Assembly (NCBI GenBank): GCA_045533905.1
Contig: JAZSIR010000014.1
Location: forward strand, 1-54,051
Length of the DNA: 54,051 nucleotides
Direction of reading: 5' to 3'
Source: Clostridia bacterium
Lineage (GTDB): Bacteria; Bacillota; Clostridia; UMGS1883; UMGS1540
Part shown: positions 1,949 through 54,051 of the stretch, piece by piece
How the letters are laid out: the number at the start of each line of letters is the position of its first letter
Position numbering within the stretch: position 1 is the stretch's first letter
Program-made: the position numbers and the translations under genes
The notes under the pieces: generated by a model
The model's input: only the letters and a program-made list of their open reading frames with translations
Told to the model about the DNA's origin: nothing
The model's database searches: none

Positions 1949-3304
1949 TTATGTTTCGAAGGTATAGTACACATCAACCACATCGTCCGTAATGACGATT
2001 TTGTCCACACAGCTTTTTATCACCTTTTTCTTCTCGCGCATGGAAAGATACGGCCAGCTATCGCGCACGGCGCTGATTTCCTCGCGCGTTTTTTGCCGCG
2101 CCGCTTCTTCTTTTTGCGTGTTTTCTTCTTCTTTTATGCGGTCTTCGAGTGCAGAAAGCGTTTTCTTTCGGTCGCGGATGGCAGAAAGCAGAAGTTCATC
2201 GCCGCTGTCGCCGTACAAATCATACAGCCTTCGAAGCTTCGTGCGTGCCGAAGAGAGCTGGCTTTTAAGAATTTCCAAAACGCTCTCGCCCTCCTCTTCG
2301 CCCTCTTCCCGCCGAACAGAAACGGAAAATAAATCTTCGAGCACAATTTCTTCGATTTCCCAAGCGCTATGGCGTTTATTATCACAATTTGGGTCGCGCA
2401 CAAGATGGCGTTTCGACTTATCGGCGGAGTAGCACACAATTTTGCAGTCCGTTTTGCCCCACTTCTGATACCGCATTTTCGCGCCGCACTTACCGCAAAC
2501 GAGTAGTCCCGTTAAAAGATAGCCCCCTCCGCTTATCGGGCGGCGCGCACGCTCTCGCATGGCCGCCATCGTCTTTTCGTATGTTTCAAGACTTATAATG
2601 GGCGTGTGTCTTCCTTTATACTCGACGCCGTTATACACAATATACCCCGCGTTCGTCTTCCGTTTTAAGATTTGCAGTGCCAGATGCTCATAGCGAAGAC
2701 CGAGGACTTGGGCGATTTTATCGGTGGAATAGCCTGCGAGGTACAAATCATACGCCCTTTTCACCGTTTCGGCATCCGCATTTGGCACGAGGATTCCCTT
2801 TTCGCGGTCATAATCGTATCCGAAGGGAATTTTGCCGCCACCGGGCCAGTAGCCGTTTTTCACGCGTTCCTGCATCCCCAGGCGCGTGCGTTCGCGTATC
2901 GTTTCACGCTCAAGCTGCGCGAAGGCGGACATAATGCCGAGCATAGCGCGCCCGATAGGCGTGGAGGTATCCATATTTTCGTTCATCGAAATGAACGTGA
3001 CGCCCTCGGGGTTAAAAACATCTTCTATTAAATAGAGCGTGTCTTTTTGCGAACGGGAGAGACGGTCAAGCTTATAGACGATGACGTGCGAAATTTTCCC
3101 GTTTTGCACATCCTCGATAAGGCGGCGCATCGCAGGACGGTCAATATTACTGCCCGTGTAGCCGCCGTCAATATACAGCTCCCGTTCCGGAATTTCGCGC
3201 GCCGTGCAAAACGCCGAAAGAAGCTCCTTCTGTGCCTCAATGGAATACCCTTCATCCCTTTGCCCTTCCGTGGAAACACGGATATAAAGTGCCGCACGCT
3301 TCAT
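1949..3304 (-). CDS. Large serine recombinase (resolvase + recombinase + Zn-ribbon + coiled coil; SpoIVCA/integrase-like)
   Basis: YIRVST catalytic Ser, DRLSRS, FAQLERETIRERT, PFGY, CGKCG...C...C. Confidence 0.96.
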   Translation of the reverse strand: MKRAALYIRVSTEGQRDEGYSIEAQKELLSAFCTAREIPERELYIDGGYTGSNIDRPAMRRLIEDVQNGKISHVIVYKLDRLSRSQKDTLYLIEDVFNPEGVTFISMNENMDTSTPIGRAMLGIMSAFAQLERETIRERTRLGMQERVKNGYWPGGGKIPFGYDYDREKGILVPNADAETVKRAYDLYLAGYSTDKIAQVLGLRYEHLALQILKRKTNAGYIVYNGVEYKGRHTPIISLETYEKTMAAMRERARRPISGGGYLLTGLLVCGKCGAKMRYQKWGKTDCKIVCYSADKSKRHLVRDPNCDNKRHSAWEIEEIVLEDLFSVSVRREEGEEEGESVLEILKSQLSSARTKLRRLYDLYGDSGDELLLSAIRDRKKTLSALEDRIKEEENTQKEEAARQKTREEISAVRDSWPYLSMREKKKVIKSCVDKIVITDDVVDVYYTFET

Positions 3305-3432
3305 TATGCCTCTTCTTCGCTCGCACGACGGCGACTGTCGGCCGCGGCAACCGCCTCGCGAATGGCCTCGTTTTCTACAAGAGGCGGTATGGTTTTTATC
3401 TTTTCGCCGTTAACATAGCGGTTAATACGCAT
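3304..3432 (-). CDS. 42-aa small protein coupled to the recombinase (not in ORF track)
   Basis: MRINRYVNGEKIKTIPPLVENEAIREAVAAADSRRRASEEEA; GAAAGGAG RBS; its TAA overlaps the recombinase ATG (TAATG). Confidence 0.75.
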   Translation of the reverse strand: MRINRYVNGEKIKTIPPLVENEAIREAVAAADSRRRASEEEA

Positions 3433-3452
3433 ACAGTCACTCCTTTCCTTTC

Positions 3453-3482
3453 CAGTATTCCCCCAAACAGGAAAAAGAATAC
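3453..3482 (-). promoter_or_regulatory. sigF-type (forespore) promoter of the small ORF-recombinase operon
   Basis: GTATT-15 bp-GGGAATACTG versus sigF consensus GYATA-N15-GGnnAnAnTR. Confidence 0.7.
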
Positions 3483-3584: not shown

Positions 3585-5036
3585 ATGAAAAAAGCAGACA
3601 TCGGTCTCGTCGGTCTTGCCGTTATGGGCGAAAACCTCGTTATGAACATGGAAAGCAAGGGTTTCACCGTTGCGGTATATAACCGTACAGCAGACAAGGT
3701 AAAGAACTTTGTAGAAGGCAGAGCTGCCGGCAAGAACATTATCGGCACCTACTCTCTCGAAGAACTCGCCGCAAATTTAGAAAAGCCCCGCAAGGTTATG
3801 CTTATGGTTAAAGCCGGCCAGGCTGTTGACAATATTATCGAACAGCTTCTCGAGCACCTCGAAGAAGGCGATATTATTATCGACGGCGGTAACTCCCACT
3901 TCCCGGATACCATTCGTCGTGCAGAATACGTAGAAAGCCGCGGTCTTCTCTATGTAGGCACAGGCGTTTCCGGCGGTGAAGAAGGCGCTTTAAAAGGCCC
4001 GAGCATGATGCCCGGCGGCTCTCCGGCAGCTTGGGAATATGTAAAGCCGATTTTCCAGGGCATTTGTGCTAAAGTGGAAGACGGCACACCCTGCTGCGAC
4101 TGGGTTGGCGAAGGCGGCGCAGGCCACTTTGTAAAGATGGTACACAACGGCATTGAGTACGGCGATATGCAGCTCATCTGCGAAGCTTACCACTTAATGC
4201 GTGATTATCTCGGCATGACGCCCGACGAAATGCACGAAGTTTTCGCAGAATGGAACGAAGCTGAGCTCGATAGCTACCTCATCGAAATCACACGCGACAT
4301 TCTCGCATTCAAGGATACAGACGGCGCTCCCATTGTAGATAAGATTTTGGACACGGCAGGCCAGAAGGGCACCGGCAAGTGGACCGGCATTGCCGCACTT
4401 GACGAAGGTGTACCGCTTACCCTTATCGGTGAAGCTGTATTCTCTCGTTGCCTCTCCGCAATTAAGGACGAACGCGTAGCCGCATCCAAGGTTCTCACCG
4501 GTCCTACTCCGAAATTCGAAGGCGACAAGAAAGCATTTATTGACGATATCAGAAAGGCTCTCTTTGCTGCAAAGATTGTTTCCTACGCACAGGGTTACAC
4601 CTTAATGCGTGCCGCTGCAAAGACATACGGCTGGAACCTCAACTACGGCGGCATCGCTCTTATGTGGCGCGGTGGCTGCATTATCCGCAGCGTATTCCTT
4701 GGCAAAATCAAGGAAGCCTTTGATAAGAACCCGGCTCTTACAAACCTCCTCCTCGATCCCTACTTCAAGGAAATCATCGACGGGGCACAGGCCGGTTGGC
4801 GTCGCGTTTGCGCAGCTGCTATGACGAACGGTATTCCGGTACCGGCTATGAGCACGGCACTTTCCTACTACGATGGTTACCGCTGCGAAAAGCTTCCGGC
4901 AAACCTTCTCCAGGCACAGCGTGACTACTTCGGTGCACACACCTACGAACGCCTTGACAAGGAAAGAGGCGAGTTCTTCCACACCAACTGGACAGGACAC
5001 GGCGGCAGCACTTCCGCATCCACATACACCGCATAA
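3585..5036 (+). CDS. gndA: 6-phosphogluconate dehydrogenase, NADP-dependent, decarboxylating
   Basis: GLAVMGENL, GVSGGEEGA, KMVHNGIEYGDMQ, QAQRDYFGAHTY. Confidence 0.98.
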   Translation: MKKADIGLVGLAVMGENLVMNMESKGFTVAVYNRTADKVKNFVEGRAAGKNIIGTYSLEELAANLEKPRKVMLMVKAGQAVDNIIEQLLEHLEEGDIIIDGGNSHFPDTIRRAEYVESRGLLYVGTGVSGGEEGALKGPSMMPGGSPAAWEYVKPIFQGICAKVEDGTPCCDWVGEGGAGHFVKMVHNGIEYGDMQLICEAYHLMRDYLGMTPDEMHEVFAEWNEAELDSYLIEITRDILAFKDTDGAPIVDKILDTAGQKGTGKWTGIAALDEGVPLTLIGEAVFSRCLSAIKDERVAASKVLTGPTPKFEGDKKAFIDDIRKALFAAKIVSYAQGYTLMRAAAKTYGWNLNYGGIALMWRGGCIIRSVFLGKIKEAFDKNPALTNLLLDPYFKEIIDGAQAGWRRVCAAAMTNGIPVPAMSTALSYYDGYRCEKLPANLLQAQRDYFGAHTYERLDKERGEFFHTNWTGHGGSTSASTYTA

Positions 5037-25866: not shown

Positions 25867-25910
25867 ATTTTCACACGGGTACGTTCATTGGCACGGCGTA
25901 TGTTGAAAAT
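25867..25910. other. Candidate serine-recombinase attachment site at the sigG breakpoint
   Basis: 44-bp dyad: ATTTTCA (25867-73) / TGAAAAT (25904-10) plus inner CGT/ACG and C/G pairs, centred on TT 25888-89 (coding strand CC-AA-TG). Confidence 0.7.
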
Positions 25911-26176
25911 TTTACGCCGTGGCTCGTATCAAAATTATCAATTGCCTTCATAAGGCCGATGCAGCCGACCTGAAAAAGGTCGTCCACATGCTCGCCGCGA
26001 TTTTGAAACCTTTGAATGACGCTTAAAACAAGGCGCAAATTTCCCTCAATAAAGCTTTCGCGCGCCGCGGTGTTTCCTTTCTTGATTTCTTGCAGAAGTT
26101 TTTCCTTCTCTTCTTCACTCAAAATTGGGAGTTTTGCGGTATTCACGCCGCTGATATCCACTTTATGCATTGCCAT
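25871..26176 (-). pseudogene. sigG: 5' fragment (about 97 conserved codons) of forespore sigma factor SigG; split or truncated gene
   Basis: KVDISGVNTAKLPIL, GNLRLVLSVIQRF, DDLFQVGCIGLMKAIDNFD, KFSTYAVPM, then NVPV-stop where SigG normally continues with IIGEIRRYLRD; AGGAGG RBS. Confidence 0.93.
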
Positions 26177-26197: not shown

Positions 26198-26245
26198 AAA
26201 AATCCCCTTCAAGGATAGTATCCGTTTGAAGGGGATTTTTTATAC
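26198..26245 (-). promoter_or_regulatory. sigF/sigG-type promoter of sigG interleaved with a 15-bp inverted repeat
   Basis: GTATA-19 bp-ATACTA; AAAAATCCCCTTCAA / TTGAAGGGGATTTTT. Confidence 0.65.
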
Positions 26246-50452: not shown

Positions 50453-50507
50453 AACAAAAAAAGACTGCAAATATCAGGTTGTTGGAAAGCACCTTTACTT
50501 GCAGCCT
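50453..50507 (-). terminator. Riboswitch expression-platform terminator
   Basis: AGGCTGCAA...TTGCAGTCT followed by a U tract. Confidence 0.8.
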
Positions 50508-50575
50508 GACCATCATAGCAAATTGCCGTAGATTCGTGGCTTTGCGTCGCCGGTTTTCACCAGTTTTGCCTATAT
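50497..50575 (-). ncRNA. c-di-GMP-I (GEMM-I) riboswitch
   Basis: GGCAAAACTGGT-GAAA-ACCGGCGACGCAAAGCCACGAATCTACGG...TATGATGGTCAGGCTGCA: GNRA loop, GACGCAAAG junction, receptor-like CTACG/TATG. Confidence 0.92.
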
Positions 50576-50579
50576 TTTA

Positions 50580-50608
50580 AGTATAGCACACGTGCGAAAC
50601 ATTGTCAA
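50580..50608 (-). promoter_or_regulatory. sigmaA promoter of the polysaccharide operon
   Basis: TTGACA-17-TATACT with extended TG. Confidence 0.85.
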
Positions 50609-53890: not shown

Positions 53891-53984
53891 GAAAAGCCTG
53901 TCAGTTTGCACTGAACTGCACCAATTTGTGCAGACAACACAAAAAAGCACCCTATGGTAAACAATATTAAATTTTAAGCAACAT

Positions 53985-54016
53985 ACTGACATCGTTTTTC
54001 AAGCGGTGTCAGTTTT
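53985..54016 (+). terminator. Hairpin/terminator near the window end
   Basis: ACTGACATCG...CGGTGTCAGT-TTT. Confidence 0.55.
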
Positions 54017-54051
54017 GTTTTAAGTTGTATTCTTTCATTGTTGTAAAAATG

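Follow-up and report, generated by a model that had tools for sequence, protein, structure and literature searches.

Gene rearrangements mediated by large serine recombinases are part of several developmental programmes, the closest to the case described here being the skin elements, which split the mother-cell sigma factor gene sigK at att sites. In B. subtilis (SpoIVCA) as in C. difficile (CD1231 and CD1234), PMC5025042 describes how a large serine recombinase and a small directionality factor, controlled by a sigma factor specific to one compartment, rebuild a sporulation sigma gene. Among the skin elements surveyed in bioRxiv 2022.02.25.481979, which range from 2.6 to 48 kb, the recombinase gene always lies at the element's border, and skin excision is described in PMC13492144 as irreversible and taking place in a dying cell. 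The gin element of B. cereus ATCC10987 (GirC/GirX, gerE) also relies on a non-phage, developmentally timed recombinase and a small factor; the recombinase alone integrates, and excision needs both proteins (PMC5595907). This division of labour is general for serine integrases, which recombine attB and attP unaided and need a small factor for attL and attR (PMC12286644, PMC5595907). Finally, in reversible active lysogeny, a host locus is switched by excision and re-integration, as with SpyCIM1 at mutS-mutL (PMC13492144).

We analysed a 54,051-nt stretch of DNA from a Clostridia bacterium (hereafter called the window; its genome is G000), in which the sporulation sigma gene sigG is split at att-like sites. 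As in skin and gin, a large serine recombinase is present, here with a predicted counterpart of the small factor. However, the target is the forespore sigG rather than the mother-cell sigK, the recombinase gene is detached, lying 22.6 kb away from the 5' half of sigG, with the 3' half on another contig, and no element is left. Unlike skin excision, a change at sigG would need undoing, as it would affect the inherited cell. The gin recombinase is encoded within the element itself, an excisable segment of 28.6 kb that interrupts a mother-cell gene, and active lysogeny moves a discrete prophage or island, whereas the system of the window would move essential chromosome. It thus resembles the skin, gin and SP-beta rearrangements but fails two of their defining features, a recombinase at the edge and a dispensable segment. 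Our literature search on split sigG and related topics, whose reach mostly excluded subscription papers and Tables S3 and S7 of bioRxiv 2022.02.25.481979, found no paper on a split sigG. The reading that we favour on sequence grounds, with a probability of roughly 0.7, is that a host-fixed module of recombinase and small factor is turned on by sigma-F inside the forespore and would rejoin the distant sigG halves by chromosome rearrangement.

The recombinase locus and the split sigG gene

The gene at positions 1949..3304 (-) codes for a 451-residue protein whose Resolvase, Recombinase and Zn-ribbon domains all score above the Pfam cut-offs (142.5 bits for the catalytic domain PF00239; PF07508 and PF13408 for the other two). 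It harbours the catalytic S10, a DRLSR motif and zinc-binding cysteines at positions 269, 272, 290 and 306. Residues Y6, R8, S10, D79-R83 and the four Cys residues are invariant across nine aligned family sequences, and in the alignment the cysteines are followed by a long charged segment, which may correspond to the coiled coil inserted in the zinc domain of large serine recombinases. The product is an intact large serine recombinase, predicted to be active in recombination. As the original prediction had it, the gene sits in a host-like context, between a polysaccharide deacetylase gene (810-1640) and gnd (3585-5036), with a GC content of 0.51 (gnd, 0.52; whole genome, 0.49) and no match to phage or ICE gene families among the 53 window proteins scanned. 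Its dN/dS is ~0.06 in two comparisons with unsaturated dS, and gnd is found within the 1.5-kb flanks of the recombinase gene in 6 of 12 genomes with an orthologue, both genera concerned being represented. These features fit a vertically kept host gene, of a family that appears to target one sigG codon. The three other large serine recombinases of the genome were discarded as candidates, with 24-30% identity and positions outside the family in a quick tree.

The interval between the deacetylase and recombinase genes (1650-1945) contains a terminator hairpin and, after it, a MITE-like repeat, related copies of which are found at the ends of contigs C1, C2, C12 and C17. Elsewhere in the window, a c-di-GMP-I riboswitch (50497-50580) precedes a polysaccharide locus in which an EAL-domain gene is present.

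A 42-codon ORF (3304..3432, -) sits between the promoter-like site described below and the recombinase gene, its stop codon overlapping the start of the latter (TAATG). This ORF, with the consensus MxIxRYINGK, was found at all 12 orthologue loci and recognised in 16 of 64 wider-family loci, with pN lower than pS in 11/11 comparisons. The predicted structure of the protein consists of a beta-hairpin and a helix (pLDDT 72); it yielded no NCBIfam family and no PDB fold match, and its best Atlas score was 0.78. According to PMC12286644, verified directionality factors vary widely, most of them contributing a strand to the zinc domain. Position and conservation are all that make the 42-residue protein a candidate recombination directionality factor.

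The 5' half of sigG (25871..26176, -) comprises 97 SigG codons, matching TIGR02850 positions 1-95, followed by 4 att-derived codons and a stop. That the split gene is real and distant from the recombinase had been anticipated, with a figure of 22.5 kb instead of 22.6 kb; the 3' half had been missed. The latter is found on another contig (G000:C2:30732-31211, +) and matches TIGR02850 positions 94-254. Both halves lie among housekeeping genes. No intact sigG was found in G000, in which sigE, sigF and sigK are intact.

The attL-like site at the end of the 5' half (25868..25909, -) consists of a B arm (25895-25909), a core, GTGCCAAT, with a central CC (25887-25894), and a P' arm (25868-25886). Its attR-like partner is at G000:C2:30707-30750. 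The paired sites share the core at one sigG codon, the sequence common to both junctions being CGTGCCAATGA, and the two halves are compatible in frame. The non-coding arms form an inverted repeat around the core, with 15 matches out of 19. In the 10 genomes having both junctions, P and P' match at 10-18 of 19 positions, and the central CC is always present. The mean pairwise identities of the two arms across genomes are 0.67 (n=12) and 0.77 (n=10), against 0.29 and 0.25 for the adjoining 19 nt. Genome-wide, each half-site pattern matches exactly only its own site, with three one-mismatch matches elsewhere for the P pattern, and no second exact att-like site was found in these searches. We infer from the sequences that the sites are cognate to the recombinase. 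A sigA-like promoter is present just upstream of attR (G000:C2:30657-30685) in 8 of 12 genomes; the genes it reads into in the split state are the 3' half and, downstream of this, a lipoprotein gene and a mutS2-like gene.

Promoter signatures of the recombinase unit and of sigG

Sigma-F promoters follow the pattern G(T/C)AT(A/T/G) with a spacer of 15 +/- 1 nt. Our search pattern was set by hand, the consensus being adjusted with sequences already in view. A forespore-type promoter-like site, GTATT-N15-GGGAATACTG, is present at 3453..3482 (-), ~20 nt before the small ORF, where the original prediction had placed it. It fits the pattern, the G that precedes the -10 element included, and is predicted to depend on sigma-F. 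Among the 12 orthologues, the pattern is exact in nine, has one mismatch in two and two mismatches in one, and it lies 19-23 nt ahead of the small ORF in 11. The promoter initially assigned to the recombinase gene is therefore conserved, but the 42-codon gene had been overlooked and the unit has two genes. As background, 5 of 1362 called genes have an exact match and 24 a match with one mismatch; three of the five are presumably spoIIR, ypeB and a coat protein gene. A looser form of the pattern occurs 26 times in the genome versus 21-29 times in shuffled sequences, so that a single match alone is weak, and the weight of this one comes from its conservation in register among orthologues. A search of the same strand upstream of the recombinase gene revealed no sigma-70-type promoter.

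The consensus sequences of sigF and sigG promoters are very similar, but according to PMC3789822 (Tables S6 and S7), the former are marked by a G upstream of the -10 element, the latter by an A downstream. The promoter-like site of the sigG 5' half, GTATA-N15-ACGGATACTA (26216..26245, -), shows the trailing A of the sigG type but not the GG of the sigF type. Scored on the shared core only, GG is found in 12/12 recombinase promoters, in 8/10 promoters of intact sigG genes in relatives (12 loci fetched, less 2 lost in parsing) and in 0/10 split-sigG promoters (the call for G010 being misplaced). Conversely, the trailing A is present in 8 of 9 well-placed split-sigG promoters and in 1 of 12 recombinase promoters. 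This distribution suggests that the sigF signature has passed from sigG to the recombinase unit, in one evolutionary event. Both the target gene and the promoter motif are of forespore type by sequence; skin-type excision is restricted to the mother cell.

The recombinase might rejoin sigG without forespore-only control, acting before septation, in both compartments or stochastically, with the motif read by sigma-G or another sigma factor. The close similarity of the two consensus sequences leaves room for this, as do reports that sigG of C. difficile is not sigF-dependent and that its sigG-class promoter CD3551.1 resembles the recombinase promoter (PMC3789822, Table S6 for the latter), and that the recombinase of the C. 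difficile skin element is expressed constitutively (PMC5025042). Nevertheless, the presence of GG in all recombinase promoters and of the trailing A in a single one fit sigF by the rule of PMC3789822, sigma-G would be unable to drive its own first rejoining, and all 12 assemblies display only the split state. We consider this explanation unlikely.

Association of the recombinase family with split sigG

The recombinase is present at >=70% identity in 12 of the 81 genomes of the order, namely in 9/9 genomes of this genus, including G000, and in 3/3 of a second genus. These carriers are exactly the genomes in which a sigG 3' half starts at model position 91-92 and an intact gene is lacking. The 69 non-carriers include 64 genomes with an intact sigG, one of which, G011, has a 36-39% identical recombinase relative, and 5 incomplete genomes without a whole gene. 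Co-occurrence is thus strict, with a split gene in 12/12 carriers and 0/69 non-carriers split at this site, as expected from the proposed link between the recombinase clade and split sigG. Eleven of the 12 carriers yielded the 5' half, truncated by the contig end in G021; it was not found in G008 (92% complete).

Because the 12 carriers are kin, they count as about one event, and a replicate was therefore sought in other families. Among 300 genomes of the class, five further carriers were identified in two other families (56-59% identity). All five have a split sigG and the small ORF, and the three non-carriers picked for comparison have an intact sigG. No sigG half was present within the 4.6-12 kb fetched around these five recombinase genes, nor at the recombinase loci of 11 relatives.

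A wider scan, covering about a quarter of the genome collection, yielded 68 family loci, 38 of which adjoin a sigG half at <=3.5 kb downstream (the 3' half in 31 cases and the 5' half in 7). Of the other 30 loci, three show a weaker sigma match and 27 no match, several of the latter lying at contig ends. Two close relatives located beside a 5' half carry a P' arm resembling that of the window. In a quick tree, the 12 orthologues group together as one clade within the family (support 100), and recombinase and SigG distances are correlated (Spearman 0.62, 66 pairs, Mantel p 0.006), with poorly resolved trees. Judging from these sequences, the two-gene module is likely a remnant of a sigG-targeting element.

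G085, which has an intact sigG and a 45% identical relative, was considered as a counter-example and set aside, as its recombinase gene adjoins half of a different sigma factor gene. The corresponding 45%-identical subfamily (L309 = G085:C80, L099-L101) is found beside a sigma 3' half beginning with MIVGEIKR, which we take to resemble sigF rather than sigG; this subfamily possibly marks a split sigF. At another locus (L301, G124:C25), the gene order is sigE, sigG 5' half, attL, spoIIAA, spoIIAB and sigF, and rejoining of sigG there would separate the sigF operon from the DNA upstream of it, which may serve as a built-in shut-off. In the relatives of the order with an intact sigG (L036-L048), this gene is not adjacent to sigE, and each genome inspected shows different neighbours.

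It is improbable that the split gene is a dead relic in bacteria that no longer make sigma-G, with the recombinase kept by descent or for another site. The joined form was not seen, the inferred contig order places hundreds of kb between the halves, and the 5' half went undetected in G008, as might be expected of a relic. However, dN/dS is 0.03-0.10 for both halves in 18/20 comparisons, in which dS is near saturation without reaching it, and the non-coding att arms are conserved; by these sequence measures the halves and the arms are under purifying selection. In addition, the other sporulation sigma factors are intact, spo0A is present in 11/12 carriers, and the genome has no second exact att-like site. 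We also looked into 8 DNA sequencing runs, in which at most 0.17 of the sequence words were present, and compared the contigs of 5 runs with both junctions. Those crossing a sigG junction correspond to the split form and none to the joined form, but the patchy coverage of the species makes these data too thin to weigh either way. Lastly, that sigma-G works as two separate chains, or is joined at the RNA or protein level without DNA recombination, is highly improbable: the 3' half does begin with an ATG, downstream of the sigA-like promoter in 8/12 genomes, and the 5' half stops 5 codons after the core, but a ribosome-binding site before that ATG was found in 0/12 genomes, and the att arms and the retention of the recombinase would be left unexplained.

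Chromosomal geometry and proposed mechanism

Essential genes rather than an element lie beside both sites. After attL come rimP, nusA, infB, rbfA, truB, nusG, rplKAJL, holA, gnd, the recombinase gene and the 16S rRNA gene, and before attR are transporter and housekeeping genes. No dispensable or prophage-like segment between the halves was found in the gene content flanking the two sites. Classical excision of a 22.5-kb element is ruled out, as essential genes lie there, and removing it would not reach the partner half, since essential chromosome separates the two. Of the original proposal, a domesticated recombinase rejoining sigG in the forespore, the core is supported by the co-occurrence, the conservation of the promoter and the 38 of 68 family loci beside a sigG half.

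Like the rRNA genes, the 5' half reads along the G-rich strand, which places it on the leading strand. The dnaA gene is on contig C17, and a contig of a relative (G004:C22) runs unbroken from dnaA into the right end of C2; the 3' half is therefore ~94 kb clockwise of dnaA and points back toward it. Codon-position skew gave no orientation for C2. About 440 kb of the clockwise arm were joined by inferred contig order, using synteny (C2-C1), repeat elimination (C1-C12), an IS target duplication (C12-C8) and synteny in three genomes (C8-C4). The contig of the window joins C5 by an IS target duplication and probably C15, and this chain is not tied to either arm. Two indirect signs speak for a position of the window chain on the other arm near the origin: on the contigs of relatives that carry the origin or the 3' half, we found 19/159 genes of C15, C5 and C7 and 0/158 genes of C12, C8 and C4, and an enumeration based on replichore balance gave 0.75 for this position. 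Contig ends C4R, C14R, C18R, C9L, C3L and C15R stayed unlinked, at rRNA, IS or mobile-element breaks.

Based on this inferred contig order, the sites are probably direct repeats, one to each side of the origin, and a circle of at least ~310 kb with oriC and sigG would be excised by the reaction. Should they instead lie on the same arm, which we hold to be the less probable arrangement, the outcome would be an inversion of >500 kb. In most relatives, both halves are on the leading strand, unlike in G000, and the geometry may therefore vary; gene order differs even in the nearest relative. In the wider family, G081 has a closed 3.25-Mb chromosome with the sigG halves in direct orientation, 1.03 Mb apart within one replichore (G081:C1, sites at 29.5 kb and 2249 kb) and the recombinase beside the 3' half, and in G082 the halves are inverted and 30 kb apart, with the recombinase elsewhere. 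Both outcomes thus seem to occur.

The GC skew is close to zero for ~120 kb clockwise of dnaA (C17, C2 and the first part of C1) and then rises, which may reflect frequent origin-proximal rearrangement. The IS found at 53912-54051 of the window and at other contig ends has copies in terminator-hairpin loops, with target duplications of 3-4 bp.

According to the favoured reading, rejoining of sigG by the host-fixed module in the forespore, sigma-F would transcribe the two-gene unit after septation. The recombinase and the small protein would then act on attL and attR to yield an intact sigG, containing attB, and an attP site, after which sigma-G would drive its own promoter. As the small protein decays, the recombinase alone would recombine attB and attP and restore the split state, which is the one in the assemblies. 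With no sigma-70-type promoter found for the recombinase, this reverse reaction must rely on leftover protein. A more specific version, which we regard as possible though doubtful, is that the forespore chromosome is cut into an oriC circle with the intact sigG and an origin-less remainder, which are later fused again, a reversible programmed fission of the chromosome in the germ line. A DNA switch would then replace direct sigma-F control of sigG and would fire only with both sites in the forespore.

The sporulation gene rearrangements described in the sources cited above remove a disposable element, classically in the doomed mother cell, whereas here the gene concerned is that of the forespore's own sigma factor, and the recombinase is a fixed host gene proposed to act at long range, the element being gone. 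The compact recombinase, the candidate directionality factor and the set of att sites are suited to plasmid tests. If this reading is true, hundreds of kb would be reversibly inverted or split off in the inherited cell as a part of development in these bacteria, and the hand-over from sigma-F to sigma-G would be wired through DNA.
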